From an uncultured Eubacteriales bacterium (lineage in GTDB: Bacteria > Bacillota > Clostridia > Oscillospirales > CAG-272): 64,000 bases of DNA. Below, piece by piece: positions 17,147 to 33,767 of this stretch. The DNA is taken from contig URHI01000001.1 of the NCBI GenBank assembly GCA_900547565.1, positions 3,533-67,532 of the forward strand, written 5' to 3'. Every line of letters begins with the position of its first letter. The stretch's first letter is position 1. A program made the position numbers and the translations under genes. The notes below the pieces were generated by a model. It was given only the letters and a program-made list of their open reading frames with translations. It was not told the origin of the DNA and searched no databases.

Positions 17147-17159
17147 AGCGCCGAAATAT

Positions 17160-17382: not shown

Positions 17383-17392
17383 TTAACCGAAC

Positions 17393-18324: not shown

Positions 18325-20169
18325 TTATTCACCAAACGTCTGTGCACCGTATATTTTTGCGATGAACTTGGAGATATCGGTGTTATCTACCGTTGTATTG
18401 TTGAAACATTCTGTTCCGTAACCAAGTGCATAAACAGGAACATCAGCGTTGGTGTGTGTGGTGACTGTGTACTTATACTCACCGTTGTCGTTTTTGGTGA
18501 TACCGCCTGTCTCATGGTCGGCGGTTATGATAAGCACACTGCTGGGGTGACACAGCGTAAACTCTATGCAGTAGGCAATGATCGAGTTATACCTCACCAC
18601 ACGATTAGTCGTTCCGTTCAGGTCATTCTGATGTGAACGCTTATCATTGTCTGCCTCCTCTATCATGGAGAAGTAGCCCTTATCCCCCTGCGCAATTCCC
18701 CACAGTGCCTCGGGAATGTCGTTGATAATGTCATCGCTGTCTTTGTTGCTTATAGCATAATCGACCTGCTTGTTGGCAATCAGTGCGTCAATCTGTGACT
18801 GGATGACACTGGTGGAATTACGGTCGTTTACATGGGCCAGAAATGCGGCGGGAGTAGCGCCCGTAATGTAGTCGGTGGTAAGTATCGCAGTGCGTGCTCC
18901 GACCGAATGAGCCAGTTCACGGACATTGAGTATGGACTTACCCCTGTAGTTAAGCCCGAGATAGCTGTTGAATGTTTTGCACCCGGTTGCAAGTGCCGTG
19001 CCGGCTGCGGCACTGTCGGTATAACCGGCCTTGCCTATCTTGACTGAATACGAAAACGTCTTGGCGCTTCCCTTGTTCGGCAGCAGCCGGGCTACAAATT
19101 CCTGCAGCTTGCCCGATGCCAGCGTTGCCTCCACGTGATTGTAACCCATACCGTCACCTATAAGCAGAATGGCGCTATCCGGAGTTTCAAACTTGAAGGT
19201 CTTGGCAGTATACGCGGTTGGAAGGGCGGTCACGTCAATTGCCTGATTCGCTGTATGAGGCTTTGCGTAATTGTTAATAAAGTCACTGACAGCTCCGCCG
19301 ACCATATATGACTTACCGTACATAACTATTTTGCTTGCCGTCTGCGCCAGCACGTACTGGTCATCGGCCAGTTTTACGCCGGCAGCCTGTACCGACTCGG
19401 GACGGTTTGTTGCACCGACGAGTATTTCGCAGTCGGTCCGCTCGGCGGTGTCGGCAGCTGTATCCAGCCGCACGCCTGCGTAATAATACAGATAATCGGA
19501 CAGATTCTGCGCGGCGGCAGCTGCAAGTATGTCGCCGTCGGGAATGATGATTTTATAATCCATTATGCTGACGCCGCTCACCGACAGACTTCCCAGCGGA
19601 TAGCTGTAGCTCTGAAGGTAATTCAGGTCGTCCATAATGGCAACGCGCTTGTTGGAGGGATCCACATAATGGCTGACAAAATAATCCACTCCCCACCCGG
19701 TGGCCTCGTCATCACCGCCGATTATGTAAATACGCTCGTTGGCGTATACAATGGCGAAATCCTTTTCGCGCAGCCGTGATCTTATACTCTGCGCCTCGGG
19801 ACGGTCACACACGCCGACTACGATTTCCTTGGCCTTTTGCGGGACAGGTTCGGTTCTTTTATGCCAGTCGGTATCGATCTTGACATTGATCCCAGTTGCA
19901 TCTGCCAGCGTGGTGCGCAGACCTGATGCAATATTTGTCAGTCCCTTGCTGCAGGTTTCGGGACGTATGACCTTGTACTGCATTTCACCGTTCTCGGCAA
20001 CGATCACCGGCTGAGCGGGTGCTTGGGTCGTATTAGCCGGCATTGTGGTCGTTATCTCAGCCGGTGTGGTATCCGGAGTGATCTGTCCGGGATCCCGGGT
20101 GTCGGCACAGGCAGCCAGCGTCGCACATGTAAGCAATACCAGTATAAGCGCGGTAATTTTTTTCAGCAT
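18325..20169 (-). CDS. Surface lipoprotein: 2 copies of the shared N-module plus an alkaline phosphatase domain
   Basis: Lipobox TLAAC. Alkaline phosphatase motifs are LIGDGMGYNH, TDSAAAGTALATG and ITADHETGG. N-modules are YKVIRPE...EIVVGVCDRPEA and YKIIIPD...EILVGATNRPES. Confidence 0.8.
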   Translation of the reverse strand: MLKKITALILVLLTCATLAACADTRDPGQITPDTTPAEITTTMPANTTQAPAQPVIVAENGEMQYKVIRPETCSKGLTNIASGLRTTLADATGINVKIDTDWHKRTEPVPQKAKEIVVGVCDRPEAQSIRSRLREKDFAIVYANERIYIIGGDDEATGWGVDYFVSHYVDPSNKRVAIMDDLNYLQSYSYPLGSLSVSGVSIMDYKIIIPDGDILAAAAAQNLSDYLYYYAGVRLDTAADTAERTDCEILVGATNRPESVQAAGVKLADDQYVLAQTASKIVMYGKSYMVGGAVSDFINNYAKPHTANQAIDVTALPTAYTAKTFKFETPDSAILLIGDGMGYNHVEATLASGKLQEFVARLLPNKGSAKTFSYSVKIGKAGYTDSAAAGTALATGCKTFNSYLGLNYRGKSILNVRELAHSVGARTAILTTDYITGATPAAFLAHVNDRNSTSVIQSQIDALIANKQVDYAISNKDSDDIINDIPEALWGIAQGDKGYFSMIEEADNDKRSHQNDLNGTTNRVVRYNSIIAYCIEFTLCHPSSVLIITADHETGGITKNDNGEYKYTVTTHTNADVPVYALGYGTECFNNTTVDNTDISKFIAKIYGAQTFGE

Positions 20170-20188
20170 GGGAAAATGTTATCCTTTC

Positions 20189-21667
20189 TCAGTGTTCCAG
20201 GCCGTTTATCTGTTCAAGCGTTTTTGAAAGCAGCTTGCGCTGATTGGTCTCCTGCCCCTTGAGCAGTGAGTTGATGTCCATTTTGCCTGCGGCAAAGAAG
20301 GAGTATATCTGACTGCTGAAGGTTGTGCCTACAATTTTGTTGACATAGGAAATGTTGTCGTGAATAATGGTCAGCATTTCGGCAGACTCAACGTCGGTTG
20401 AGGACTTGTATTTGAGCGCCGTCTCATAATATGCGGGAATCAGCGCCGAGTCGGAATAATATGCGCTGGAATAATAGGACAGTGCCTCAAGCAAAACACC
20501 TGTGCGCTCAACGTTTTGGGTAGGGCTGGGTATCATGATCGAGTGTGGGTTGGGGCTGACCTGTATGTAGTTTTCCTGTGCCTCGTCCCACTTGGCCACG
20601 GGCAAAATGCCGAAGTTGACATCGGAAGCACGTGATTTTGAAGCCATGTACAGCGTATCGATAGTAAACAAGGTATTGTTGTTTATGAACATGCTGCGCC
20701 CGTCATCGGTATTGGTGATAAGGTAAAAATCTCCCTCAGAGAATGTGCTCAGCAGTTTTTGGTATACATTAACGAAAAATTCCTTCTCGTCAAAGCAACA
20801 GAAATACGGAATACCGTCACTTCCCTGCTTGATTATCTCGGCGTTGCAACCGGTGAGCATTGCCTCGTAGAAGGTAGTGGCGTTATTAGCAATACCGACA
20901 CGGTCGCTGATGTTATATATGCTATTGCCGTCGCGGTCGTTAAGCGCCGTTTTTGCCATAGTCTGCATCTTTTCTATAGTCCACTTATTTTGATTGACAA
21001 GAGTATACGGATCCTCAAGGTTCAGGTCGCGAATAAGATCCTTGTTGAAATAGGTTGCCCGGGCATTGTCGAGTGCCGTGATAAGAAAGTCGCTGAAGGT
21101 ATAGTACAGTTTACCGTTGATTGACAGCTTCTGCTGAGCATTCTGATCCCACCATGGCATGGACAGATCAATAGTCTCAATGTTTCTCATATCAAGCGAA
21201 TAACCTGCATTAACCATGCTCATTATGTTGGAAAGGTCAATGGTTGCGATTGCATAAAGGTCATCACCCGACTGAATGGCGGTCTTGATAGGGCCGATAT
21301 CGACATCCGCATCTACAATTTCCACGCCGAACATGCTCTCGATAAGCACAGTGCGGTCGTACAGTGCATCATTGATGGACTCCCCCTGCTGTATGTCGGA
21401 GCGAATAGCGTTGGTGGTATACTTGGTGGAGTCGGCAAAATCGTTAGCAACGACAAAAGAATATCCCTGGTACTTGACATCAGGCAAATCGGGGGTCAGC
21501 TTTTCCAATGTAGTATCGGTGGTGTTAGTATCTTCGGCGACATTGGTGGCAGATGTACTTTGTTGTTCCGGGGTAGTATCCTCACCGTCGCCGGTCTGAT
21601 TGGCACAGGCGGCCACCATAGGTAACAACATAAGCAAAACCAGTATCATAAGTAAACTTTTTTTCAT
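20189..21667 (-). CDS. Orphan SBP-like lipoprotein (paralog of 7638..9143)
   Basis: Lipobox MVAAC followed by a Thr-rich linker. It shares the motifs INGKLYY, FGILPVAKW and SAEMLTII with its paralogs. Its stop lies 19 nt before the alkaline phosphatase lipoprotein start. Confidence 0.65.
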   Translation of the reverse strand: MKKSLLMILVLLMLLPMVAACANQTGDGEDTTPEQQSTSATNVAEDTNTTDTTLEKLTPDLPDVKYQGYSFVVANDFADSTKYTTNAIRSDIQQGESINDALYDRTVLIESMFGVEIVDADVDIGPIKTAIQSGDDLYAIATIDLSNIMSMVNAGYSLDMRNIETIDLSMPWWDQNAQQKLSINGKLYYTFSDFLITALDNARATYFNKDLIRDLNLEDPYTLVNQNKWTIEKMQTMAKTALNDRDGNSIYNISDRVGIANNATTFYEAMLTGCNAEIIKQGSDGIPYFCCFDEKEFFVNVYQKLLSTFSEGDFYLITNTDDGRSMFINNNTLFTIDTLYMASKSRASDVNFGILPVAKWDEAQENYIQVSPNPHSIMIPSPTQNVERTGVLLEALSYYSSAYYSDSALIPAYYETALKYKSSTDVESAEMLTIIHDNISYVNKIVGTTFSSQIYSFFAAGKMDINSLLKGQETNQRKLLSKTLEQINGLEH

Positions 21668-21708
21668 GATGGAATACCGTTCCTTTCCCCTTTATGGGCG
21701 TTTTTTTA

Positions 21709-21737
21709 ATTTTAACATATTTTAAAGTGTATGTCAA
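21709..21737 (-). promoter_or_regulatory. Sigma-A type promoter of the SBP-like / alkaline phosphatase / LRR operon
   Basis: On the minus strand: TTGACA (21737-21732), 17-nt spacer, TAAAAT (21714-21709). Confidence 0.55.
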
Positions 21738-21775
21738 TGAAAACCTCTGCTTTTTCCATAACGTACCGTTCGGTG

Positions 21776-21804
21776 TTGACAGCAGGATGCTTTTGTGGTA
21801 TCAT
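21776..21804 (+). promoter_or_regulatory. Sigma-A type promoter of dus
   Basis: TTGACA (21776-21781), 17-nt spacer, TATCAT (21799-21804) with an upstream TGg. Confidence 0.55.
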
Positions 21805-21892
21805 ATTTTCGAAAAAAACAGAAAGGCTGTCCAATGGAGCAAAAGACCGAAAGCTTCATTAATGCAGTATCGGCTGGGCAGGCGTGGGAAAT

Positions 21893-22900
21893 ATGAAAAT
21901 CGGTAATATTACGCTGCCTCACGGCTTGATACTTGCTCCCATGGCCGGTGTTGCCGACACAACACTTCGGCGCATTTGCCGCAGTATGGGTGCGGACTAC
22001 ACTGTCAGCGAAATGCTGTCAGCCAAAGCGCTGTGCTATGAACAGCTCAGCCGTAAATCCGATCCCCATATTTTCAAAACAGCCTCACTGGCGCTCATCT
22101 CGCCCGGTGAAGTGCCTTGTGCAGTACAGATTTTCGGCTCCGAGCCGGAATATATGGCTCGCGCAGCGGAGATGCTTGAGAGCGGCGAATACAACGGTGC
22201 AGGACAGCTTCGTCCCGCAGCAATTGATATTAATATGGGGTGCCCGGTGCACAAGGTGGTGTCGTGCGGTGAAGGAAGTGCGCTTATGCGCGACCCTCAT
22301 CTCGTATCTGAAATAATCACCGCTGTCCGCCGTAAAATAAGCATACCGCTGACCGTCAAATTCCGTGCCGGGTGGGATGAGCACAGTATAAACGCCCCCG
22401 AGCTGTCGCGCATTGCCGAAGCCTGTGGGGCAGACGCCGTGTGCATACATGCCCGTACCCGAGCACAGTTCTACTCGCCGCGGGCTGATTGGAACGTAAT
22501 CGGCCGTGTCAAGCAGGCTGTGTCGATTCCCGTCATAGGCAACGGTGACATAAACTCCCCGGAGGACGCCGATGCCATGCTGTCACAGACCGGATGTGAC
22601 GGCATCGCAATCGCGCGCGGAGCACTTGGAAATCCATGGCTGTTCGCCGCTATTGCCGCCCATATGGACGGCAGTGAATATATACCGCCAACGCCCGCCG
22701 AACGGCTTGAAGTGGCCATGGCGCATGGAACCGCTCTGATCGAGCGCAAGGGAGAGAGAGCGGGCCTGGCTGAAGCTCGTGTCCGGCTGGCACAGTACAC
22801 ACGCGGGTTTCGCGGAGGTGCGGCCGCACGGGACGAAATAATGCGAGCTGACGATCTTGATGCCGTGCGCGTCATACTTGAGCGCGTCATGACAGACTGA
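21893..22900 (+). CDS. dus: tRNA-dihydrouridine synthase
   Basis: ILAPMAGVADTTLRRICRSMGADYTVSEM...DINMGCP...HARTR are typical Dus motifs. The start could instead be the GTG at 21884. Confidence 0.85.
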   Translation: MKIGNITLPHGLILAPMAGVADTTLRRICRSMGADYTVSEMLSAKALCYEQLSRKSDPHIFKTASLALISPGEVPCAVQIFGSEPEYMARAAEMLESGEYNGAGQLRPAAIDINMGCPVHKVVSCGEGSALMRDPHLVSEIITAVRRKISIPLTVKFRAGWDEHSINAPELSRIAEACGADAVCIHARTRAQFYSPRADWNVIGRVKQAVSIPVIGNGDINSPEDADAMLSQTGCDGIAIARGALGNPWLFAAIAAHMDGSEYIPPTPAERLEVAMAHGTALIERKGERAGLAEARVRLAQYTRGFRGGAAARDEIMRADDLDAVRVILERVMTD

Positions 22901-22950
22901 ATACGCGTCCGATCTTTAATTCCGATAAAATCTTCATTAGGGAGGCGATC

Positions 22951-23532
22951 ATGATTACCGACAATGAAATATTGCTTACTCTCATGAAGCGCACTGCCTC
23001 CGGTGATGAGGCTGCGTTCGAACAGCTGGTGTCGGCGTTTGAGAGCGCGGTGTACAACCTCGCATACTCAAGTCTGCGCCAGCGTCAGGACGCCGAGGAC
23101 GTCACGCAAGAGGTATTTTTGCGGCTGTGGCGTAACCGCAGCAGCTTCCGAGGCGAATGTGCAGTTAAAACATATATTATGCATATTGCCCACAATGCAG
23201 TCACCGATTCACTGAGGCGGCGAAACAGCCATGCTGTCACCGCTTTGCCTGATGACACCGACGATGAAGACGCTCCCCGCCGTGAGTTGGCCGACTCTAC
23301 CGACCTTCAGGCTGAATATATCAGAAAAGAGCGACAGGCGGCAGTTCATCAGGCCATCTCGGAACTGGATCCAAACAGCCGCGAGCTTATAATAATGCGG
23401 GATATAAACGGACTAAGCTATGCCGAAATTGCAGATGCGACCGACATTCCGCTGGGAACGGTCAAGAGCCGGCTGTCCCGTGCGAGAGACCAATTAAAAG
23501 AATTTTTAAAAAAGGGGAACTTTTTCAACTGA
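22951..23532 (+). CDS. ECF-type RNA polymerase sigma factor
   Basis: Region 2 reads DAEDVTQEVFLRLWRN. Region 4 reads LSYAEIADATDIPLGTVKSRLSRARDQL. Confidence 0.88.
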   Translation: MITDNEILLTLMKRTASGDEAAFEQLVSAFESAVYNLAYSSLRQRQDAEDVTQEVFLRLWRNRSSFRGECAVKTYIMHIAHNAVTDSLRRRNSHAVTALPDDTDDEDAPRRELADSTDLQAEYIRKERQAAVHQAISELDPNSRELIIMRDINGLSYAEIADATDIPLGTVKSRLSRARDQLKEFLKKGNFFN

Positions 23533-23573
23533 CGTTCGTCAGTAAATATAAATACACCGGAAAGGAGAGTTCC

Positions 23574-24437
23574 ATGGATAATAAAATCACATCCGACCTG
23601 GACTGTGAGCAGGCGGAATTGTTGATAAATGAATACCTGGACGGTGAACTTGACGCCGAAACGAAAGCTGCCGTGGAGGCGCATCTTAACCGATGTGACA
23701 GTTGCCGTCAGACATACAGTCAGCTGCGCGACATATGCGAAGCCGTCAGCGACTGCCGCGAAGAAGTCCCCGCGGGACTGCACAAAAGCATCATGTCGGC
23801 TGTAAAAGCCGAGTCAAGAGCCGCACGTCGCCGCCGCTTTGCCAGTCGCTTCGGTGTCGGAATTGCTGCTATTCTCTGCTTCGGACTTATTGCAACCGTC
23901 ACTGTGCGACAAATGGGCAAGTTCAATACCGGTGACACCACAGACGATTTTGCCATCAATTCCGCCCTTCGGCAGGACAAGGTAGACCATGCAAAATACG
24001 ATGATGTTGATAATAATGAAGGTATCGCCGCTGCTCCGGCAGAAACTTCCGGAGTCAAATCGGATACCCATGAGATGGCTGAAGCGGAGATAGCGAACCC
24101 GGCTTTGACCAAGAAAGTTACGGATGCCGTCGCTGACTGCACCATGGCACCCGTACCAGCCGATGCGCCTGTGCAGGAGAGCGATAACTCTGATGCCAGC
24201 CTGCGTGCTGACATTTGCGGCAACTGGGTAACCGATGACTGGACTTTGGTACTGAGTACCGACGGAACCTTCACATTTACCGGTAAATCAACCGCTGACA
24301 AGATACAGGGCAGCTACACCTACAGCGGCGGACTGTTGAGCTTAAAATACAACGGCGTCGCCTCGGTCTACACCGTCTCGGTCAGTGACAATATACTGAC
24401 CTTCTCTCACTGCTCAGGCGATAAACTGTTGCCATGA
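23574..24437 (+). CDS. Anti-sigma factor (zf-HC2, single TM, extracytoplasmic domain)
   Basis: HLNRCDSCRQTYSQL zinc-finger anti-sigma motif. The TM helix is FGVGIAAILCFGLIATVTV. Confidence 0.75.
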   Translation: MDNKITSDLDCEQAELLINEYLDGELDAETKAAVEAHLNRCDSCRQTYSQLRDICEAVSDCREEVPAGLHKSIMSAVKAESRAARRRRFASRFGVGIAAILCFGLIATVTVRQMGKFNTGDTTDDFAINSALRQDKVDHAKYDDVDNNEGIAAAPAETSGVKSDTHEMAEAEIANPALTKKVTDAVADCTMAPVPADAPVQESDNSDASLRADICGNWVTDDWTLVLSTDGTFTFTGKSTADKIQGSYTYSGGLLSLKYNGVASVYTVSVSDNILTFSHCSGDKLLP

Positions 24438-25018
24438 GTAAAATATGTATACTGACTGCAGACAAGCAACTGTACGATCTCACCGCACTTTTGCTTGAAA
24501 TGCACGGCCACTCTGCCACTACATCCGCCGGCGACTACCCGGTGGTGTGGGATGCTGATTCTGTATCACTTCCCCGCCTGACACATGCTCAGGCTGTCAT
24601 AGCCATCAGCCGCACCCCCGGACACATACCTGATTCAGCTGCACGGCGCTGCTGTGTAACACTCGGGCGTCCGTTTGAATTCGAATGCTTTACAGCTACA
24701 GTCGAGAAAGCGCTGTCATGGCAGGGAGAGCAGGTCAGCCCGCCGTCCCGCGGACAACGCCAGGCCATCACGCTTGACCGTCCGCGCAGGCGTCTTGTCT
24801 GCGGGCACAAAAGTGTCACATTGACGCCGGCAGAGTTGGCAATTTTTACGGCACTTTACGAGCAACGCGGACAGGCCGTGAGCCGCACTGTTCTGGAGCA
24901 GGCACTGCAAGGTGAAAGTCTGCCTGTGCATATGTGCTCACTGCGAAAAAAGCTGTCGGCACTCAACCGCCTGCCGCTGATAACCACTGTGCGGGGACAG
25001 GGCTACAAATTCGAATAA
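24434..25018 (+). CDS. OmpR/PhoB-type winged-helix regulator with a degenerate receiver domain
   Basis: The C-terminus LTPAELAIFTALYEQRGQAVSRTVL...LRKKL...TVRGQGYKFE matches Trans_reg_C. The N-terminal receiver-like part lacks the DD pair and has RPF instead of KPF. There is an ATGA overlap with the anti-sigma gene. Confidence 0.7.
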   Translation: MSKICILTADKQLYDLTALLLEMHGHSATTSAGDYPVVWDADSVSLPRLTHAQAVIAISRTPGHIPDSAARRCCVTLGRPFEFECFTATVEKALSWQGEQVSPPSRGQRQAITLDRPRRRLVCGHKSVTLTPAELAIFTALYEQRGQAVSRTVLEQALQGESLPVHMCSLRKKLSALNRLPLITTVRGQGYKFE

Positions 25019-25021
25019 ATT

Positions 25022-25053
25022 ATCCCGGAGAGCCGATCGGTCTCCGGGATTTT
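25022..25053. terminator. Rho-independent terminator between convergent genes
   Basis: Stem atcccggaga / tctccgggat followed by TTT. Confidence 0.7.
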
Positions 25054-25067
25054 GCTAATGCGGACGC

Positions 25068-25511
25068 TCAGAACAACCCAACAATATAATAAATAATCCC
25101 GTAAACCGCGCCCGCCAGTGTGCCGTAGAGCAGTACCGGCCCGGCAACGGTAAATATTTTTGCACCGATTCCCAACACAAGACCTTCGCGATAGCTGTCC
25201 ATGGCAGGCGAAACCACGGCGTTTGCAAAACCGGTTATGGGAACCAGCGTACCGGCACCGGCAAAGCGCGCAATACGGTCAAATACGCCGAGGCCTGTCA
25301 GCAGCACAGCGGCAAACACCAACGTTACCGAGCAGAGCAGCCCCGCCATATCCCGCTCAAGCCCGGCGTAAACATACAGCTTGTTCAATCCTTCTCCGAT
25401 CGCGCATATTATGCCTCCGCACACAAACGCGCGCAGACAATCGCGGACAAGTGCCGACTTAGGCGCACGCGCGTCGGCATAGCGCGGATAATTTGCTTTT
25501 GATATATTCAT
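25068..25511 (-). CDS. spoVAC: Stage V sporulation protein AC
   Basis: CLRAFVCGGIICAIGEG...FAGAGTLVPITGFANAV...EGLVLG is collinear with B. subtilis SpoVAC. Confidence 0.85.
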   Translation of the reverse strand: MNISKANYPRYADARAPKSALVRDCLRAFVCGGIICAIGEGLNKLYVYAGLERDMAGLLCSVTLVFAAVLLTGLGVFDRIARFAGAGTLVPITGFANAVVSPAMDSYREGLVLGIGAKIFTVAGPVLLYGTLAGAVYGIIYYIVGLF

Positions 25512-25587
25512 ACGATCTCTCCGTTTTTTATGTTATTATGCCCTTCCCGGCGTAATTTATAATTTTTTTTGATTTTTCCGTCACGAA

Positions 25588-25613
25588 TGAAACTTTTTCA
25601 GGCTTTTCTCGGT
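25588..25613 (+). promoter_or_regulatory. Candidate ECF-type (SigW-like) promoter upstream of the sigma-fusion gene
   Basis: TGAAAC (25588-25593), 16-nt spacer, CGGT (25610-25613). The -10 is imperfect relative to CGTA. It lies 44 nt before the ATG. Confidence 0.3.
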
Positions 25614-25656
25614 TGTATATGGCAGACGCGTCCAAGTTCAGAAAGGCGGTGAACCG

Positions 25657-26985
25657 ATGACAGAAAAGAATACCGTTGCCCTCGCCCGGGAAGGCAACAT
25701 TGACGCCCGCGAACTGCTTTACCGCAAATATTACGGCGACGTATACCGTTATTGTGTCTATCGCTGCGGTGACATTCACACCGGAGAGGATCTGACACAG
25801 GAGGTATTTCTGCGCTTTTTCCGTTACGCGGCCGAGTCGCGTGCATTTGACAACGCCAAAGCGTATATTATCAAGATCGCATGTCATGTCTGCACAGACT
25901 ACATGGCCTCACATACGCCTGTGTCACCACTTGCCGACGACTTCACAGACCGCACCGCTGAGCGCCTTACCGAAGGACAAATGGCTGTGCGGCGTGCAAT
26001 AGCAGCCCTCGGCGACGACCAGCGGCAGGTGATAATTCTCTACTACTATAACAATATTCGTATCAACCGTATAGCGGAAATACTCGAGACTCCGTGCTCA
26101 ACCGTCAAGAGTCGCTTAAGACGCGGACGTGAGCGGCTCAAACAAATTCTCATTCAGGAGGTGGAGATCGGCGGAAAGCTGTATTTTGCCACCGGAGACA
26201 TATCCATCAATACTGTATTATCAGCCCAGTTCATACTTAGCAATACCGGCATGCTTGCCGCCGCCGGCATAACCGACCCTTACGCGCTGGTGCGTGAAGG
26301 CAAGTGGACGCTTGAGACCGTACTGGCATTGGCCAAAAACGGCAACGGCCTGTACCTCGGCCCAGGAAACGGGTGCATAGCGCTTATAAACGCCGCCGGA
26401 GCACGGCTTACCGGAAACGATCTCGGGCTCTCGTCCGACTGGGACAACGGCAGGCTCTCCTCACTGTGCGGACTGCTCGCATGGACTGATGCTGTGTCGA
26501 CAGCTACCCCCGACAGCGTGTCAAGCATGCTGTCAGTACGCAGCCTGGGATACCTTATAAGTCTTACGAGCGATCAGAGTATCTCTGACAGTTATGATAT
26601 CTTGCCGCTTCCCAAGGCCGATGAAACAGACAGGAATTATCGTGCACCGCTGTCAGGCAGCGCGATGTATTACTCAATTCCCATGCTGAACGGCGCTGAG
26701 GATGCCGCATGCGTTATGCAGTGTACGGCAAGCGCAATGAACAACGACATCTACGATACACTCGCTATGCGCTTCTGCCTGAATACCCGCTCGGCCGAAA
26801 TGCTTGAGCTGATAATGGATAACATGTGTTACTGCCTCGACACGGCGCTGTCACTCAGCTCCGCCGGCGGTGTTTCCTTGACCAACGTCATCGGCGCGGG
26901 AAAAGAGCTTAACACGGCACTGGCTGTCAATCGCAAGTTGCTGGAAGTCCGACTTGCCACTTTGGTTGCAAGTATATCCGAATAA
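25657..26985 (+). CDS. Chimeric protein: complete ECF sigma factor (aa 1-168) fused to the C-terminal half of an SBP-like protein (aa 169-442)
   Basis: Sigma region 2 reads GEDLTQEVFLRFFRY and region 4 reads INRIAEILETPCSTVKSRLRRGRERL. The protein then continues IGGKLYFATGD...YDILPLPKADE...SAEMLELIM, homologous to residues from about 205 onward of 7638..9143 and 20189..21667. Confidence 0.75.
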   Translation: MTEKNTVALAREGNIDARELLYRKYYGDVYRYCVYRCGDIHTGEDLTQEVFLRFFRYAAESRAFDNAKAYIIKIACHVCTDYMASHTPVSPLADDFTDRTAERLTEGQMAVRRAIAALGDDQRQVIILYYYNNIRINRIAEILETPCSTVKSRLRRGRERLKQILIQEVEIGGKLYFATGDISINTVLSAQFILSNTGMLAAAGITDPYALVREGKWTLETVLALAKNGNGLYLGPGNGCIALINAAGARLTGNDLGLSSDWDNGRLSSLCGLLAWTDAVSTATPDSVSSMLSVRSLGYLISLTSDQSISDSYDILPLPKADETDRNYRAPLSGSAMYYSIPMLNGAEDAACVMQCTASAMNNDIYDTLAMRFCLNTRSAEMLELIMDNMCYCLDTALSLSSAGGVSLTNVIGAGKELNTALAVNRKLLEVRLATLVASISE

Positions 26986-27010
26986 GCACAAAATTTGATT
27001 ATTCAGCATT

Positions 27011-27057
27011 GCATACCGGCTTTATTGCACGCTAAACAAAGCCGGCATGCTTTTTTT
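27011..27057 (+). terminator. Rho-independent terminator after the sigma-fusion gene
   Basis: 13-bp stem gcataccggcttt / aaagccggcatgc (1 mismatch) followed by TTTTTTT. Confidence 0.75.
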
Positions 27058-27087
27058 GGCAAATATGCTGAATATACTGCATCATTC

Positions 27088-27116
27088 TTGACATTTTACA
27101 TGTATTTTGATATAAT
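27088..27116 (+). promoter_or_regulatory. Consensus sigma-A promoter with an extended -10
   Basis: TTGACA (27088-27093), 17-nt spacer, TGaTATAAT (27108-27116). Confidence 0.65.
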
Positions 27117-27153
27117 TACCGTAAACAATTAAATAGGAGGCATTCGATATTAT

Positions 27154-28086
27154 ATGAAAATCAAGTCTTTAATTGCACTGGCGCTGATATTTGTAATGAT
27201 GTTTGTAATGGTCGCCTGCAATAACGGTGACCAAAATCCTGCAGACACAACAACAGCTCCCAAGGCTGACACAACTCCGACACCGGTCACAACATCTGCA
27301 AAGCCCGCTGACACCACCACCCCCGCAGATTCCACAACAGCCGCACCTTCCGACACCACAACAGCCACACCTTCCGACACCACAACAGCTTCGTCCGGCG
27401 AATTAACGCCTGTCGATTTTTCCGAGTTGTCCGACGCTGAGAAGGCCGCGCTCAAATCAGTCATGCCCGCCACTCTGCCTAACGACGAGAAATATGACAT
27501 TGCTTGCCGTACCTTCTGCATGGACAGAGCAGATGAGGACTATCTCATAGAAGGCAACTCCAAAGGCAGCGCTTCATTCGTAGGAACTGATGACGGCGCT
27601 ATATACGGTAAAGCAGTAAAGTTTGCAGGAAAATCCGACTCCAAGGACAGCCGCGGTGAAATTCAGCTTACCTGCTACGGAGACGCTCCCATTGCGGGCT
27701 GCAAGGGCATACTGTTCTATGTCGACTTCTCCAACGTCGAAATAAACCCAGAAAAAACCAACGCAATGTGTGGTTCGGTAACTATCAACACCAATGATGT
27801 CCGCTCGCAAGGACCTGAAAACGCAGTCGGCTCAGCAGTCGCCTACTACTATGAAAACAACACTTGGGTTAAAACGACCAATATAACGACCTGCCGCATA
27901 TCCATTCCCGATAACTTCGCAGGCTGGATCTACGTTCCCGCATCTTCATACTATGATAAGAACGCAGGTGCGATCGGCGATACCTTCCCTGATATCTTTA
28001 TCATCAATATGCGTTGCTATACCGACGGCTACACCTACTCGGCCGATTCTTACATTATTTTTGACGAAATAACCTTCGTAAAATAA
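27154..28086 (+). CDS. Lipoprotein with a long Thr/Pro-rich linker and an uncharacterised ~200-aa C-terminal domain
   Basis: The signal peptide ends in MVAC. A ~70-aa TTTAP/ADTTTP linker follows. RBS aggagg. I recognise no family for the globular part. Confidence 0.6.
   Translation: MKIKSLIALALIFVMMFVMVACNNGDQNPADTTTAPKADTTPTPVTTSAKPADTTTPADSTTAAPSDTTTATPSDTTTASSGELTPVDFSELSDAEKAALKSVMPATLPNDEKYDIACRTFCMDRADEDYLIEGNSKGSASFVGTDDGAIYGKAVKFAGKSDSKDSRGEIQLTCYGDAPIAGCKGILFYVDFSNVEINPEKTNAMCGSVTINTNDVRSQGPENAVGSAVAYYYENNTWVKTTNITTCRISIPDNFAGWIYVPASSYYDKNAGAIGDTFPDIFIINMRCYTDGYTYSADSYIIFDEITFVK
27343..27390 (+). repeat. 24-bp tandem repeat (2 copies) inside the Thr-rich linker
   Basis: gcaccttccgacaccacaacagcc / acaccttccgacaccacaacagct, 22 of 24 identical. 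It encodes APSDTTTA and TPSDTTTA. Confidence 0.85.
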
Positions 28087-28151
28087 AAAAATATAAGTTC
28101 ATAAGACTACGCGGCACCGGCTGTGCCGCGTTTGTCATTAAAAGGAGCTAT

Positions 28152-30065
28152 ATGAAAAAAATACTGCTTATATTCGCCGCGGCTCTTGCTGTACTGCTCT
28201 GCTTCACTGCCTGTGACAGAGAAAATCCGCAGGATCTTCCCGACTGCAGCAGTGTGTCTGACAGCACGTCAGACACTACCGGCTCTTTGCCTGAAGCGCT
28301 GAATATTGTCACCGGCGGTGCGACAAAATATAAGGTCATACGCCCGGAAAACTGCTCAAAGCAGGTGACAGATGCCGCAGTTGCACTGCGCCTCGGCATA
28401 ATGAAAAAATATGACCTGTCCGAAATGACAATAACCACCGACTTTGAATCGCGTGATGCCGACCCGGCTGACCGGTATGAGTATGAGATCCTGGTAGGCA
28501 GCACCAACCGTGAACAGAGCATACTTGCACTCGGTTCGATAAAATACAATGATTTCGTAATATGCGTAGACGGTACACGTGTGGTCATCGCCGGCAACAA
28601 CGATGAAAAAACCGCCGAAGCGGTTGATTATTTCCTATCCAATTATTTGGGCGACAATACGCTTTCACTGCCGGCTGACCTGTCATATGTCAGCACTGCC
28701 GAATACCCCGCCGCCGGAGTTACTCTGCTCGGGCAGCCTGTTTCCGCTTATCGCGTAGTCTACAAAAGCTCATATAAATCCATGGCGGAAACGGTCGTGA
28801 GTACACTGGGAGCTTCATGCGGTGACGTCATGTCCATGAACAGCGACGCAGCAAACTCCACCTCCAATGAAATTGTCATCGGTACGACCCGCCGCGGCTC
28901 ATCTGGCAAGACCTTTGGTGCGGATGACTTTGCACTTACGGTAAAGGATGGCAGTATATTCATTGAAGGCGGCTCGGATTACGCCGTCGGCTCCGGCTGC
29001 CGCTACCTTTTGAATTTGGTCTCGTCTTCCTCAGGGGACCTGAGCCAGTCCGCTCTGAGCTACAGCTATACCCTGCCCGACCGTCAGGTATACATTGACG
29101 ACATATCCAAGCTGGCCATGCACTGGGACATTGAATTCGATACCCCCGACTGGATGACCGACTTTGAGGAAAAAGTCGCCTCAATGAACGATCCCGATGG
29201 CCGGCTTATGTCCTGCCTGCACCGCGGAGACATGCTGTACTACCCCGAAAACTCTATCGAAGGCATCATAAGCGCCATTCGCATGGGTGCCGATATGGTG
29301 GAGATCGACGTACGGGCAACCAAAGACGGCATACTGGTCCTCATGCACGACGACTCGCTGTCCCGCATGACAAATGCCGAACAGTTCGCCGGCAAAAACG
29401 GATTTCCGTCATCGCTTCTTATCAGCAACTGGACGTACGATCAACTGTGTCAGCTGTCGCTTAAGGAACGCAACGGCGGCACGTCAGCCGCGCTTACAAG
29501 CTATAAGATCCCGACACTTGATGAGGCAATGAAGGTGTGCGCCGAGCGCGTTTTCGTCCGTCTTGACAAGCTGGATCAGTGGAATTACGCGCAGGATATC
29601 TGGCCGCTGATACAAAAGTATAAGGCATATACCACCGTTATTTTCACTTGGCACAGCGCCTTCACCTCGTCAAATTACGCACTGGTCAAAAACTACAAAA
29701 AGAAAATGGAGACCGCCGCAGGGCGCTCATCGTTCTGCTTTGTGGGTATTAATTCAAGCGGCTCGGCGGCAGCCGCGCTGAACACTATAAATACCAACGA
29801 TCTGGACAGGTGCGTACGTTTGACCGACTGCGATTTTTCCAAATTCACGCTTGACGAATATCTCAGTAAGGTCAGCACGATTTTATCTGGCCTGAGTGGC
29901 CGTGCGAGATGCTACATAGACGCGCACGGCAATAACTCGCGTTACGAAACACCCGAGTGCTATGCTAAACTGTACGACGCAGGCATCAATATACTGCTGG
30001 TCAACAAAGGGCTTTCACTCTGCCAGTACATCGAACAAAATTACTCGGCAGGTACGACTGACTGA
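28152..30065 (+). CDS. Surface lipoprotein: 2 copies of the shared N-module plus a glycerophosphodiester phosphodiesterase (GDPD) domain
   Basis: GDPD signature HRGDMLYYPENSIEGIISAIRMGADMVEIDVRATKDGILVLMHDDSLSRMTN. N-modules are YKVIRPEN...EILVGSTNREQS and YRVVYKSS...EIVIGTTRRGSS. Confidence 0.8.
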   Translation: MKKILLIFAAALAVLLCFTACDRENPQDLPDCSSVSDSTSDTTGSLPEALNIVTGGATKYKVIRPENCSKQVTDAAVALRLGIMKKYDLSEMTITTDFESRDADPADRYEYEILVGSTNREQSILALGSIKYNDFVICVDGTRVVIAGNNDEKTAEAVDYFLSNYLGDNTLSLPADLSYVSTAEYPAAGVTLLGQPVSAYRVVYKSSYKSMAETVVSTLGASCGDVMSMNSDAANSTSNEIVIGTTRRGSSGKTFGADDFALTVKDGSIFIEGGSDYAVGSGCRYLLNLVSSSSGDLSQSALSYSYTLPDRQVYIDDISKLAMHWDIEFDTPDWMTDFEEKVASMNDPDGRLMSCLHRGDMLYYPENSIEGIISAIRMGADMVEIDVRATKDGILVLMHDDSLSRMTNAEQFAGKNGFPSSLLISNWTYDQLCQLSLKERNGGTSAALTSYKIPTLDEAMKVCAERVFVRLDKLDQWNYAQDIWPLIQKYKAYTTVIFTWHSAFTSSNYALVKNYKKKMETAAGRSSFCFVGINSSGSAAAALNTINTNDLDRCVRLTDCDFSKFTLDEYLSKVSTILSGLSGRARCYIDAHGNNSRYETPECYAKLYDAGINILLVNKGLSLCQYIEQNYSAGTTD

Positions 30066-30088
30066 AGCAACAGCTGCTGACCGAAAAG

Positions 30089-30122
30089 AATCCGGAGTCA
30101 TAATGACGCCGGATTTTTTTAT
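30089..30122 (+). terminator. Rho-independent terminator
   Basis: Stem aatccggagtca / tgacgccggatt (1 mismatch) followed by a T8 run. Confidence 0.7.
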
Positions 30123-30131
30123 TCTACCCTC

Positions 30132-30182
30132 TTGACACAGGCTGTATCCGGAGATATAATATAATTGTTCTAATACGATTAG
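30132..30182 (+). promoter_or_regulatory. Consensus promoter plus palindromic candidate GntR operator
   Basis: TTGACA (30132-30137), 17-nt spacer, TATAAT (30155-30160). The palindrome ctaat-acg-attag at 30170-30182 lies just downstream of the -10. Confidence 0.6.
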
Positions 30183-30220
30183 TACAGTTGCCGTATTAAA
30201 TCACAGAAAGGAGTTAGACT

Positions 30221-30598
30221 ATGCTTACGCTGGATAAGCTGTCGAGGACACCAATATATGAGCAAATAATCAATAATGTACGACGTGAAATCAGCGCCGG
30301 GACGATGGCCGAACAGTCACAGTTGCCGTCAGTACGCGAGTTGTCGGCATTTTTGGGTGTAAACCCCAATACTGTTCAACGCGCCTACAACGAGCTGTGC
30401 TTGCGCGGCTATATAGTAACCGTTGCTGCGCGCGGCGCTTTTGTAGCCGAGGGGGCGCGCGAAAAAATTCTGTCCGAGGGGCGCGATAAACTAAAGCAAC
30501 TGTCTGAATTGGCCGCAGAGCTCAGACACGCCGGTGTGACACAGGACGATATTATTGCGGCCGTGACCGAAAATCTTTCAGGAGGTAGCGAACAATGA
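30221..30598 (+). CDS. GntR family (YtrA-subfamily-like, short) transcriptional regulator
   Basis: PIYEQIINNVRREISAGTM...LPSVRELSAFLGVNPNTVQRAYNEL. At 125 aa it has no large effector domain. Confidence 0.88.
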   Translation: MLTLDKLSRTPIYEQIINNVRREISAGTMAEQSQLPSVRELSAFLGVNPNTVQRAYNELCLRGYIVTVAARGAFVAEGAREKILSEGRDKLKQLSELAAELRHAGVTQDDIIAAVTENLSGGSEQ

Positions 30599-31518
30599 TC
30601 AAAACCAACCGTCTCGACATGTATTTCGGTGATTTCTGCGCCATAAAGCAGCTGACGGTAAGCATACCGGAAGGGTGTGTTTACGGGTTGGTCGGAAGCA
30701 ACGGCGCAGGTAAATCAACGCTGTTGCGTATACTGTCCGGTATTTATCGCCAGACAAACGGCGATGTTACTATTGACAACTGCCGGGTATACGAAAATCC
30801 TTTAATCAAAGAGCAACTCGTGTTTGTGCCGGATGAGTTGTTTTTCATGCCGCAGGCAAATCTGAGGGAAATGGGGCGTATGTGGCAGCGGCTTTACCGG
30901 TCGTTTGATATGTCCCGGCTGTGCGTCCTTGCCGAACATTTTGAGCTTGACATGAACGCCAACATAAACACATTTTCCAAAGGTATGAAACGTCAGGCTG
31001 CAATCATTCTGGCGCTGTCAGCCAAACCAAAATACCTGTTTCTTGATGAGACATTTGACGGGCTCGATCCTATAAAACGAAACATGGTGCGCAATCTTAT
31101 TTACGACGACATAATACAGCGCCATGCGACTGCCATTCTGTCATCTCACTCACTGCGCGAGCTTGAGGACACCTGCGATCAGCTGGCTCTGCTGCACCGC
31201 GGAGGGCTGGTGCTTGAGAGCGACATCCAAAATCTCAAGACCTCACTGTTCAAGGTTCAGGTAGGCTACACACAGCCGTTCGGACGTGACATGTTTTACG
31301 GTGTGAATATGACATCATACCGTCAGTCAGGATCAGTGGCAACGCTCATCGTCCGCGGCGACCGAGATGCACTCCGGCATGAACTTATGAATCGCTCACC
31401 TGCCCCGGCTATACTGGATATCCTGCCGCTTAGCCTTGAAGAAGTCTTCATTTACGAACTGGACGCACTGGGATATTCCGACGGGCTGGATGAATTAAAG
31501 GAGGTACGCCATGAATAA
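30595..31518 (+). CDS. ABC transporter ATP-binding protein
   Basis: Walker A is GSNGAGKSTLL, the signature is FSKGMKRQ and Walker B is LFLDETFDGLD. There is an ATGA overlap with the GntR gene. Confidence 0.88.
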   Translation: MIKTNRLDMYFGDFCAIKQLTVSIPEGCVYGLVGSNGAGKSTLLRILSGIYRQTNGDVTIDNCRVYENPLIKEQLVFVPDELFFMPQANLREMGRMWQRLYRSFDMSRLCVLAEHFELDMNANINTFSKGMKRQAAIILALSAKPKYLFLDETFDGLDPIKRNMVRNLIYDDIIQRHATAILSSHSLRELEDTCDQLALLHRGGLVLESDIQNLKTSLFKVQVGYTQPFGRDMFYGVNMTSYRQSGSVATLIVRGDRDALRHELMNRSPAPAILDILPLSLEEVFIYELDALGYSDGLDELKEVRHE

Positions 31519-32932
31519 AGTATTCGACTTCGGACTTTACCGCGTAGGACTTCGCCGAGTCAAGGTGATCGGACTGTTCTCGGCGCTGGTATGCGTTGTC
31601 GGTTCAGCCATACTTCCCGTGGCCGAAATGTTCACAAAAATAAACTCCACTTATACGTACAGGGTCTCGCCGGGCACATATGCCGTAATGCTCTGGGCAC
31701 TGATCGTTCTCGCGCCGCTTATCATGTATCACATGTTTTCATTTCTGACAAACCGACGCGATTCTGACTTTTATCACTCGCTCCCCTACACCCGCACAAC
31801 CATGTATTTCAGCTTTTTTGCCGCCGCTATGACCTGGATATGGGGGATACTGCTGGCAAGCGTCGCGGTCTGCGGTTTGTTGTGGGTCGTACTGCCTTTC
31901 AATACGATAATCAGCATAAAAGTAGTGTATACCGCGCTTATCAACTTTGCAGTGGCAACACTGTGCACAGCCGCCTTTGTACCGGCCGCGCTGTCAGCGA
32001 CCGGAACAGTCACCTCGGCTTTCCTGCTGTACATCAGCGTCATGTTCACTCCGAAATTCACGGTGTGGATGTTCACAGAATGCCTGCTTATTCACACTCC
32101 CATTCTCTACATCCCGGATAAGTGGCTGAATTACCTGCAATTCGGGCTGTTTGAGCCGTATGCCATGATGCGAAACAACAGCGTCTGCGATTGGGCTTCC
32201 ATTATTTACACCACCGTACTGTCGCTGATATTCGTGGCGGCAGGTTGGATAATATTCCGCAAGCGCCGCAGTGAGACCGCAAGCGTCCCTGCTCCGTCCA
32301 AGGGCTTGCAGGTGCTGTACCGTTGCTGTATCACAATTCCGCTGCTTATGTGCATGATGTACTCGGTATTTGCGGACTCTGTAAACACTCTGACCATCGT
32401 CTTAGCAGTCACGTCAGTCCTGGCATACTATCTGTATGAGCTGATTACCACCAAAAAGATCCGCAAAATGCTTGCCGCTACCAAGTTTGTATGGTTGCTG
32501 CCGGTATTCTGCGCGGTATTTGCCGGAGGTGTACTGCTGACATCGTCGCTCATATATGCCGACACTCCCGACGCTGACAAAATCGACCATATCCGTATTG
32601 CGGCATACAACAACAATGACGCAATCTTGTACCACAAGTATGCCGAAACACCGATTGATGACCCGGAAATCATTGCGTCGACCGTGAAGCTACTGAAAGA
32701 CAAAAGCATAAAATCCTGGGGACGGCAAGCAATGGTGGAAATAACCACCACCTCAGGCCGCAAGCTGATGCGCCAGGTACGCTGCCTTGAAGCACTTATC
32801 TACCTCGAAGATTCGGATAAATATACGGACTTTATGAACCGGCTCTACACATATTACAAATCCAAAAATATTGACCACAGCATCTCCAAGGAATATTTCG
32901 ACTTTGAACAAACAAACTTTATTCAGCAGTAA
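31511..32932 (+). CDS. Multi-pass membrane protein (putative ABC-2-type permease partner) with a C-terminal soluble domain
   Basis: It overlaps the ATPase gene by 8 nt. About 9 hydrophobic segments are followed by a ~120-aa hydrophilic tail. Confidence 0.6.
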   Translation: MNKVFDFGLYRVGLRRVKVIGLFSALVCVVGSAILPVAEMFTKINSTYTYRVSPGTYAVMLWALIVLAPLIMYHMFSFLTNRRDSDFYHSLPYTRTTMYFSFFAAAMTWIWGILLASVAVCGLLWVVLPFNTIISIKVVYTALINFAVATLCTAAFVPAALSATGTVTSAFLLYISVMFTPKFTVWMFTECLLIHTPILYIPDKWLNYLQFGLFEPYAMMRNNSVCDWASIIYTTVLSLIFVAAGWIIFRKRRSETASVPAPSKGLQVLYRCCITIPLLMCMMYSVFADSVNTLTIVLAVTSVLAYYLYELITTKKIRKMLAATKFVWLLPVFCAVFAGGVLLTSSLIYADTPDADKIDHIRIAAYNNNDAILYHKYAETPIDDPEIIASTVKLLKDKSIKSWGRQAMVEITTTSGRKLMRQVRCLEALIYLEDSDKYTDFMNRLYTYYKSKNIDHSISKEYFDFEQTNFIQQ

Positions 32933-32944
32933 CACCGCCTTTCG

Positions 32945-33250
32945 ATGAATTATAAAGAATACTCAGAGGAACTGAAGCCGCTCATGGATTCACTGCTTGA
33001 AACCTATATCAACGAGTTCAACTCACTGACCGAAGACGAGCGGTCGTTGTTGATGGGATACTTTGAAATTGGCAGTGATGTCGATTATATTTACACCTGT
33101 TTTAGCTTTCCTGCCGATTGGCCATATTATCAATACAACGACAATACGACGTTTTACGTTATAAAGAAGTATACTCCCGAAAGCTATGAGCTGCTTCAGG
33201 AGCTATTTAAGCACTATAAACATTCTGAATATATAAAAAGCCATTCCTGA
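32945..33250 (+). CDS. Hypothetical small protein
   Basis: 101-aa ORF 12 nt after the permease stop, followed by a terminator. I recognise no family. Confidence 0.45.
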   Translation: MNYKEYSEELKPLMDSLLETYINEFNSLTEDERSLLMGYFEIGSDVDYIYTCFSFPADWPYYQYNDNTTFYVIKKYTPESYELLQELFKHYKHSEYIKSHS

Positions 33251-33261
33251 AGAATAAAAGC

Positions 33262-33298
33262 TTCCCCCTGTGTAACAAATCACACAGGGGGAAATTTT
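33262..33298 (+). terminator. Rho-independent terminator
   Basis: Perfect 12-bp stem ttccccctgtgt / acacagggggaa followed by ATTTT. Confidence 0.75.
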
Positions 33299-33304
33299 CC
33301 AGTA

Positions 33305-33345
33305 TACAAAACATAACCTCCGGCAGAAAATTTGCCGGAGGTTAT
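33305..33345 (-). terminator. Rho-independent terminator of the opp operon
   Basis: Perfect 13-bp stem ataacctccggca / tgccggaggttat. On the minus strand it is followed by GTTTTGT. Confidence 0.75.
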
Positions 33346-33347
33346 AT

Positions 33348-33767
33348 TCAATATAAGTTGTAAAATCTGATTATAAAAAACACAGCCACTGCCATGTAAG
33401 CCAATCCAGTGAAGAAAATAAAACCGTAGCCCTTCACTCCGCCCGTGCTGCGTTTGCGCTGTACATAATCAGCATAGGTTTCGTGCTTTTCAAGTGTACT
33501 GCCCAGTGGGATAAATGCCCGTGCCGCGCGCGACACCACATAAGACAGTCCGTAGAACATGCCTTCGTTTGAGATCCACACCAATGCCGCACACAAAATG
33601 AGCACTACTCCGGGAATGGTGAAAGCATCCGCAAGTATACGGCAACGCTCCAGCTCGGTCGCGGCCTCGGCGTAGCCGTGAAGGGCAATGACTGCAAAGG
33701 CCATAAGTCCCCCCACGGCAATGGTTACACCGTATTTTATCAGAGTCTTGGTTATTTTTTGCTTCAC
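33348..33767 (-). CDS. Small membrane protein (DUF3899-like), translationally coupled to oppF
   Basis: ATGA overlap with oppF. It has 4 hydrophobic helices. The family assignment is from memory only. Confidence 0.55.
   Translation of the reverse strand: MKQKITKTLIKYGVTIAVGGLMAFAVIALHGYAEAATELERCRILADAFTIPGVVLILCAALVWISNEGMFYGLSYVVSRAARAFIPLGSTLEKHETYADYVQRKRSTGGVKGYGFIFFTGLAYMAVAVFFIIRFYNLY

Follow-up and report, generated by a model that had tools for sequence, protein, structure and literature searches.

Does a sigma factor that runs, in a single reading frame, into part of a binding protein represent a regulator gated by its own ligand-binding extension, or is it the scar of a deletion? 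The question is raised by an open reading frame (ORF) of 442 codons at 25657..26985 (+) in a 64,000-nucleotide stretch of DNA, hereafter "the window", from an uncultured Eubacteriales bacterium (GTDB lineage Bacteria; Bacillota; Clostridia; Oscillospirales; CAG-272). The window comprises positions 3,533 to 67,532 of the forward strand of contig URHI01000001.1 (GenBank assembly GCA_900547565.1). The original prediction, which was made from the letters of the window alone, described a complete sigma factor of the extracytoplasmic-function (ECF) type fused to the C-terminal lobe of a protein resembling a solute-binding protein (SBP), and it offered both readings. Comparison with intact alleles of the locus made it very likely that the ORF is a deletion-made chimera, that the deletion destroyed the probable membrane partner of the sigma factor, and that a ligand-gated one-component sigma factor is an improbable description of the product.

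The chimeric ORF and its junction

The ORF begins with ATG and is uninterrupted. Its first 168 residues (25657..26160, +) contain a complete ECF (group 4) sigma-70 protein in just that length, as had been predicted: Pfam profiles for Sigma70_r2 (PF04542) and Sigma70_r4_2 (PF08281) matched residues 21-86 (7e-10) and 109-161 (1.8e-13), respectively, and the NCBIfam model TIGR02937 spanned residues 16-165 (E of 1e-21). This portion is 98% identical to a stand-alone sigma factor of 171 residues (P0010). In the DNA alignment, the ancestral sigma gene had three further codons (G-F-R) and a stop beyond the portion found in the chimera.

Residues 170-442 correspond to the distal part of an SBP fold of the MalE/UgpB type. 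When residues 169-442 were compared by BLASTP with all ORFs of the window, residues 171-442 were matched to the products of 7638-9200 (-) and 20189-21667 (-) at ca. 24% identity (E of 4e-10 and 1e-9, respectively); the alignments began at about residue 215 of the former and residue 183 of the latter. Both paralogues are lipoproteins with a signal peptide and a lipobox. Their Pfam matches to SBP_bac_1/8 are weak, and one of the two passes the threshold for SBP_bac_8. The likeness to the distal part of these lipoproteins was therefore confirmed, and the two motifs that had been quoted in its support, YDILPLPKADE and SAEMLELIM, are present in the C-terminal part of the chimera. Neither a transmembrane (TM) segment nor a signal peptide was found in the 442 residues, again as predicted; in the hydropathy scan, no 19-residue window reached a mean value of 1.6.

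A search for homologues of the chimera covered 5.8 billion proteins. The best match, 95% identical, was a 499-residue protein (P0001) whose alignment was confined to the C-terminal 63% of the query. The gene for P0001 was present on four contigs (L001-L004), each from a different sample, and their synteny with the window extends from the alkaline-phosphatase gene up to and including that of the glycerophosphodiester phosphodiesterase (GDPD). Each contig carries two genes where the window has one: a sigma gene of 171 codons and a 499-codon gene whose ATG overlaps the sigma stop codon by one base (TAATG). In a MAFFT nucleotide alignment of the window with these contigs, both flanks were ca. 98% identical, and the window contained a single clean gap of 686 columns. 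Identical breakpoints (between 26161 and 26162 of the window) were obtained by megablast against four other contigs (L021-L024), which encode the intact protein P0028 and are 99.2-99.6% identical to the window; one further JGI/ENA contig is likewise intact at the locus. In sum, the two-gene state was found on at least 11 contigs of the same species, all fully syntenic and 98-99.6% identical. The original prediction had held that separate sigma and full-length SBP-like genes in close relatives would speak against a functional fusion, and this is the arrangement that these relatives have.

The junction had been placed at codon 169 (nt 26161), and the intact alleles confirmed this placement to the nucleotide. 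With the breakpoint given as a slash, the ancestral left side reads CAG GAG G/GA TTC AGA TAA TG AAC, in which the sigma factor ends E-G-F-R-stop. The ancestral right side reads GCA C/TG GAG ATC and encodes A225-L226-E227-I228 of the 499-residue protein. In the window, the two are joined as GAG G/TG GAG ATC. The break lies inside codon 169 (26161..26163, +), now a hybrid G/TG codon for valine, and relative to the intact alleles 686 bp are missing between 26161 and 26162. Around the junction, the fusion allele reads CAGGAGG followed directly by TGGAGATC. The Shine-Dalgarno-like octamer AGGAGGTG that had been noticed on the junction is indeed present at 26156-26163, and its origin is evident from the intact alleles, which read CAGGAGGGATTCAGATAATGAAC: there AGGAGG is followed, after 9 nt, by the ATG of the 499-codon gene. 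The AGGAGG at 26156..26161 (+) is thus a relic ribosome-binding site (RBS), orphaned at the edge of the deletion.

Two further candidates were considered. An internal translation start after the relic RBS was rejected: the GTG directly adjoins AGGAGG, leaving no spacer, and no RBS precedes M199, the next in-frame ATG. A deletion mediated by microhomology or repeats was also ruled out, as 0 nt are shared at the junction and no direct repeat flanking the 686-bp segment was found.

The deletion removed the last three sigma codons and the stop, together with codons 1-225 of the second gene. What remains are residues 227-499 of the 499-residue protein (26164..26985, +; codons 227-499 and the stop), joined to a sigma factor that is short of only its last three residues. 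Because 686 is 2 modulo 3, the deletion cancels the +2 frame offset between the two genes, and translation reads through in frame. The chance of this was one in three; the in-frame fusion is therefore considered an accident, with no sign of design. Judged from these alignments, the 442-codon ORF is a derived allele in which two neighboring genes, coupled in translation, were joined by one 686-bp deletion that shows no microhomology. No evidence contradicting an origin by deletion was encountered. The second reading of the original prediction, a deletion that stayed in frame, hence stands, and relatives do have separate genes for the 171-residue and 499-residue proteins. The accompanying idea that a stand-alone anti-sigma gene had been lost does not: no such gene lies between the sigma gene and the 499-codon gene, which is the only partner gene in the ancestral operon.

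The intact probable partner and its conserved module

The 499-residue protein consists, in order, of a cytoplasmic tail (M-N-N-R-K-L-K-K-I-L-K-Q-N-A), one TM helix, a linker and a full MalE/UgpB-type SBP fold. Its AlphaFold2 (AF2) model had a mean predicted local-distance difference test score (pLDDT) of 83 and a predicted template-modeling score (pTM) of 0.76. A helix was modeled at residues 3-12, the TM helix at about residues 27-55 (also backed by hydropathy), a disordered Ser/Thr/Pro-rich linker of ca. 50 residues at 58-110, and an alpha/beta domain at 114-499, over most of which the pLDDT was about 90 or higher. In a Foldseek search of the PDB, the ectodomain was matched to GacH, a dinucleotide-binding protein, UgpB and MalE over 420-440 columns (E to 8e-11, probability 1.0). 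The intact protein thus has the complete two-lobe SBP fold, of which the chimera keeps only residues 227-499. The prediction that the front half of an SBP was missing was correct, although the true parent is not a lipoprotein like the paralogues but a TM-anchored protein.

According to the AF2 model of P0001 and the Foldseek matches, the deletion took away everything from the cytoplasmic tail through the TM helix and the linker to the segment of the first lobe, which comprises beta-strands 114-120, 156-162 and 184-189 and the helices that belong to them. The stretch 26164..26985 encodes the segment of the second lobe together with the return strands and the C-terminal helices. Two segments that are not contiguous in sequence make up each lobe of a MalE-type protein, and the retained piece is therefore no independent C-terminal lobe domain. 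The term "C-terminal lobe" in the original prediction is accordingly right in that a distal SBP part is present; this part is a fragment of a two-lobe fold rather than a lobe that forms its own domain. The retained return strands and C-terminal helices would normally pack on the lobe that is now missing.

A sigma gene followed by a gene for a partner of 490-528 residues was found in at least seven lineages (L005, L009, L010, L017, L020, L026 and L028), with partner identities of 29-41%. In all seven, the gene immediately 3' of the sigma gene is that of the partner; stop and start codons overlap or are 1 nt apart in four of them, and in L017 and L020 the spacing is 26-95 nt. Despite the low overall identity, the tail motif M-[NT]-N-R-K-L-[KR]-K-[IF]-L-[KR]-[QK]-N is near-invariant across the lineages, as is a juxtamembrane motif, G-[VIL]-G-Y-V-x-[ML]-[VL]-R-[FM]-V-G, in the same proteins. 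The tails comprise 27-34 residues and are basic (6-10 Lys and Arg versus 1-2 Asp and Glu). Paralogues that are not linked to a sigma gene have ordinary lipoprotein signals rather than the TM tail.

The conserved neighborhood extends further downstream. The next gene in the module usually encodes a lipoprotein of ca. 310-320 residues, and a GDPD-domain lipoprotein of ca. 640 residues always follows where the contig is long enough. In the window, the former is a 310-residue lipoprotein (27154..28086, +; lipobox MVAC) that has no Pfam family and is syntenic in L001, L009, L020 and L021. The latter is a 637-residue protein (28152..30065, +; PF03009, 1.8e-25) and is located 3' of the sigma/TM-SBP pair in L001, L009, L020 and L028.

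The 499-residue protein has several features expected of a single-pass ECF anti-sigma factor, namely probable co-transcription with the sigma gene, one TM helix with a predicted cytoplasmic N-terminus, and a large, putatively extracytoplasmic domain. Because of this architecture and of the conserved pairing of sigma and TM-SBP genes, it is probably the membrane partner of the sigma factor and, with its SBP-type ectodomain, would act as an anti-sigma factor or as a sensor. By analogy, the intact pair is most like the single-pass anti-sigma receptors with ligand-binding ectodomains (RsgI/SigI and RsiV/SigV). In SigI/RsgI of Clostridium thermocellum and Bacillus and in SigV/RsiV, as in the intact pair, the sigma gene is followed by that of a single-pass protein whose cytoplasmic N-terminus is short and whose ligand-binding domain, on the extracytoplasmic side, is large. 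SigI does not belong to the ECF sigma factors, however; RsgI combines an RsgI_N domain with sensors made of carbohydrate-binding modules and intrinsically disordered regions, and RsiV has a fold of its own and is itself the ligand receptor. The partner described here differs from both in its 27-34-residue tail without a recognizable anti-sigma domain and in its MalE/UgpB-type ectodomain. Anti-sigma factors with solute- or substrate-binding-protein domains were not found in full-text searches or in the ECF classification paper, a weak negative that amounts to absence of evidence only.

The fold of the ectodomain is shared with the cluster-D (MalE/UgpB-type) SBPs of ATP-binding cassette (ABC) transporters, as is evident from the matches to GacH, UgpB and MalE. 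None of the three SBP-like copies in the window is adjoined by genes for an ABC permease or ATPase, as would be expected of a transporter for import. The sigma-linked copy differs from cluster-D proteins also in its anchor, which is a TM helix preceded by a conserved cytoplasmic tail and not a lipid. Each copy, at 5827-9200 (-), 18325-21667 (-) and 25657-30065 (+), is instead paired with a large secreted or lipoprotein phosphoesterase. These enzymes have an MBL fold (600 residues), belong to the alkaline-phosphatase family (614 residues) and contain the GDPD domain (637 residues), respectively. The three copies may be "orphan" binding proteins that serve surface enzymes, not transporters.

The fusion allele and the probable fate of the sigma factor

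The original prediction had allowed that the fusion might be unique to one assembly; it is not. Contigs that encode exactly this 442-residue protein number at least five and come from three or more datasets. These include two metagenome-assembled genomes at NCBI (GCA_964312455.1, in which the contig is 177 kb long, and GCA_900753155.1) and a human-gut metagenome assembly at ENA (ERZ919656). The fusion is a real circulating allele. Two of the contigs (L007 and L008) each differ from the window by one base. A third, L006 (GCA_964312455.1), differs at 57 positions, 55 of them upstream (16082-24106) and only 2 in the 12.9 kb (24107-36985) around and downstream of the fusion; 9 single-nucleotide differences fall within about 100 bp, at 22907-23013. 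This mosaic indicates homologous recombination between strains beside the fusion haplotype, and the fusion appears to sit in a single haplotype block within a background that has partly recombined.

Intact alleles predominate in the species. Of the 27 members in the 90%-identity cluster of the sigma factor, the other 14 listed all have 171 residues and are encoded on at least 52 contigs, compared with 4-6 contigs for the 442-residue form, a single sequence; the cluster of the 499-residue protein has 21 members. The chimera differs from the nearest intact protein (P0028) at two of the 273 retained residues. T236P, located in a lower-confidence loop of the model, is the sole substitution private to the chimera. 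At the nucleotide level, 3 synonymous and 2 nonsynonymous changes separate the retained fragment from its counterpart in the nearest intact allele, and the fusion-bearing contigs show no such differences among themselves. From this pattern of variation, the fusion is a single young haplotype in a species in which the two-gene state is the norm. In the comparison of the module with the more distant contigs L001-L004 (ca. 2% apart), the sigma gene had 5 nonsynonymous and 1 synonymous differences, and the SBP fragment 11 and 7, which suggests that the two genes are evolving rapidly within the species.

Two further contigs are of note for the 499-codon gene. On L031 (4803-5013; Logan ERR14039759), an independent +1 insertion of A changes CACATAGTC to CACATAAGTC near codon 32, immediately ahead of the TM helix. 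In gene calls, the frameshifted gene restarts at M53 (447 residues); the frameshift was seen on a single contig only. On L032 (3001-3675; GCA_034117165.1, JAXEQE010000109.1), the intact allele is cut off by the contig end at codon 225, 1 nt to the left of the right breakpoint; a second contig of that assembly, which encodes protein P0024, begins at codon 179 and overlaps the first by ca. 141 nt. The position of this contig end suggests a branch of the assembly graph at the breakpoint, possibly caused by mixed alleles in the sample.

In the intact state, the tail of the partner would hold the sigma factor at the membrane, and the SBP-like ectodomain would sense an extracellular ligand, perhaps one resembling a glycerophosphodiester, given the conserved GDPD neighbor. 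The deletion would destroy this membrane partner, with loss of partner function the most likely outcome. The chimera would be made in the cytoplasm and would carry a non-autonomous fragment of a two-lobe fold. Most likely, it acts as an unrestrained sigma factor with a useless appendage, or as a null if the appendage is destabilizing. We consider the chances about even that the sigma factor is unrestrained, provided that the chimera is stable; inactivation of the sigma factor together with its partner is given a lesser, still appreciable, likelihood.

Several observations weigh against this account of a destroyed membrane partner. The N-terminal tail of the 499-residue protein matches no known family of anti-sigma domains; for the tails of P0001, P0002 and the L009 protein, Pfam gave no match to zf-HC2, RskA, DUF4179 or the like even at E <= 1. 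The ratio of 3 synonymous to 2 nonsynonymous differences gives an estimate of dN/dS (nonsynonymous versus synonymous substitution rates) no power, and purifying selection is inseparable from neutrality. Finally, the fusion allele is found in at least two slightly different genomic backgrounds, and its persistence in them implies that it is at least not strongly deleterious.

A natural parallel is provided by mucA of Pseudomonas aeruginosa, whose mutations free AlgU; most of these alleles are truncations caused by a frameshift or a nonsense change, and their phenotype has been demonstrated. As in mucA, the part of the partner that would bind the sigma factor has been lost spontaneously in a host-associated population, and the species has a second disruptive allele, the frameshift. 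Here, the remnant of the partner has additionally been welded onto the sigma factor.

The alternative that survives best accepts the same deletion and holds that its product is a complete null: the chimera would be misfolded or degraded, sigma factor and partner would both be lost, and a neutral or slightly deleterious pseudogene would be drifting in one lineage. This is plausible as a minority view. Hydrophobic lobe interfaces would lie exposed in the incomplete fold, a further disruptive mutation (a nonsense change at 32930) is present nearby in the same strain, and the independent frameshift in the 499-codon gene of a second strain is consistent with the module being dispensable in the gut. 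On the other hand, sigma factors classically become constitutively active when an anti-sigma partner is lost, as established for mucA/AlgU. The ORF has also accumulated no degenerative changes, although the haplotype is too young for this to be informative. Both sigma-2 and sigma-4 are complete, and other ECF sigma factors tolerate C-terminal extensions of 100-200 residues (PMC8999054).

A more ambitious interpretation goes beyond the loss of the partner. It holds that the intact pair is an undescribed ECF module, with an SBP-type membrane anti-sigma factor or sensor, the minimal tail NRKLKKIL and a glycerophosphodiester-like or glycan ligand, and that the 686-bp deletion and the L031 frameshift are selected anti-sigma knockouts that lock the sigma factor on in some human-gut lineages. 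We regard this combination as speculative and rather unlikely as a whole.

Far less probable is the first reading of the original prediction, a functional one-component ECF sigma factor in which the SBP-derived extension binds a cytoplasmic ligand and gates sigma-2 and sigma-4 in cis, in the manner of ECF41, ECF42 and ECF238. The ORF is intact and in frame, its putative ECF-type promoter and its terminator have been kept, the allele occurs in several assemblies and two backgrounds, and some regulatory extensions did arise from ancient fusions of sigma and anti-sigma genes (PMC8999054). The chimera also resembles the ECF41/42/238 proteins in that a sigma-2/sigma-4 core and a C-terminal polypeptide (ca. 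270 residues here) belong to a single chain and this allele lacks a separate anti-sigma gene. In those groups, however, the extension is group-wide and folds autonomously, whereas that of the chimera is a fold fragment and the product of a recent deletion. All 19 of the sigma homologues compared (35-98% identity) have 166-179 residues, and none, in any lineage, has a C-terminal extension; the search for orthologous fusions that had been proposed thus came back empty, and the closest relatives are in the two-gene state. Every orthologous locus examined has a TM-anchored 490-528-residue gene product encoded directly downstream, which distinguishes it from the loci of the extension groups. Moreover, the fragment begins in the middle of an interleaved two-lobe topology and includes no autonomous ligand-binding domain, it evolved for the extracytoplasmic side, and its haplotype has practically no internal diversity and no sign of selection, for which it is too young. 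A sigma factor gated in this way is accordingly assigned a very small likelihood.

Fusions of a second type have also been described. IutY of Pseudomonas putida and ECF52 proteins such as SCO4117 are translational fusions of sigma and anti-sigma factors that are activated by proteolysis, and the ECF52 proteins end in a carbohydrate-binding extracytoplasmic module (PMC8999054). Like the chimera, they consist of a sigma factor fused to its downstream membrane partner. They differ in having kept the TM segment and the inhibitory region; they are tethered to the membrane and released by regulated proteolysis. In the chimera, no TM segment stands between the sigma factor and the ectodomain fragment; exactly the tail and the TM helix (here taken as residues ca. 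28-58 of the 499-residue protein) were lost with the 686 bp.

Least probable of all is a mis-join or a collapsed region in one assembly: although most of the data are metagenome assemblies and the end of L032 within 1 nt of the right breakpoint betrays trouble for the assembler there, the fusion recurs in independent projects (GCA_964312455.1, GCA_900753155.1 and ERZ919656), no k-mer that could cause a de Bruijn mis-join is common to both sides of the junction, and collinearity of the flanks is kept on contigs as long as 177 kb.

Transcription signals, neighboring genes and implications

A possible ECF-type promoter (TGAAAC-N16-CGGT, 25588-25613) had been pointed out upstream of the sigma gene. 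The motif is present, with an exact match to TGAAAC-N16-CGGTT at 25588..25614 (+), and a TGAA[AT]C-TTTT-N12-CG[GT]TT block has been kept upstream of the sigma orthologues in five lineages (L001, L005, L009, L010 and L017). Its -10 element is CGG rather than CGT. Within the window, the motif is not above chance: TGAAAC-N16-CGGT occurs twice versus 4.7 expected matches. No regulon of the sigma factor was discernible in the window beyond its own promoter, the other match being at chance level. The motif is probably the autoregulated ECF promoter of the sigma operon.

The predicted terminator was supported by RNA folding. It is an intrinsic terminator (27011..27057, +), a hairpin followed by U7 (-18 kcal/mol, z = -1.96), that marks the end of the bicistronic sigma/partner operon and has been kept in L001-L004. 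Just downstream lies an extended housekeeping-type promoter, TTGACA-N17-TATAAT with TG (27088..27116, +; 12/12 consensus positions), 5' of the genes for the 310-residue lipoprotein and the GDPD protein. Because they have this perfect promoter of their own, these genes probably do not depend on the ECF sigma factor. An Rfam scan of the window gave no matches.

A second, canonical ECF module lies just upstream (22951-25018, +) and is syntenic in all relatives. It comprises genes for a 193-residue sigma factor, a 287-residue zf-HC2 anti-sigma factor with a lipocalin/DUF5640-like C-terminus, and, overlapping, a 194-residue protein with only an OmpR-type winged helix (Trans_reg_C) and no recognizable receiver domain. 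On the other side of the fusion, a GntR regulator (30221-30598) and an ABC ATPase (30595-31518) precede the gene for a 579-residue membrane protein (31511-33250, +). At 32930, codon 474 of this gene is changed from GAA to TAA. L006 and L002 read through at this site, to 579 and 578 residues, respectively; it is the second strain-specific disruption near the fusion.

The event described here is an ordinary one, a deletion-made gene fusion that destroys the probable partner of a sigma factor. Annotation pipelines will call the product a "442-aa sigma-70 family protein", when in fact it marks the loss of the neighboring gene. It does not qualify as a new class of one-component ECF sigma factor, nor is it evidence that SBP domains regulate sigma factors in cis. 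The modest interest of the case rests mainly on what the comparison exposed: a conserved module of sigma factor, TM-anchored SBP-like protein and GDPD protein in uncultured gut Clostridia, and a natural allelic series (intact, 686-bp deletion and +1 frameshift) within one species. The partner, which has no recognizable anti-sigma domain, is a tractable candidate for a new type of sensor, and the allelic series could be used to test its role.

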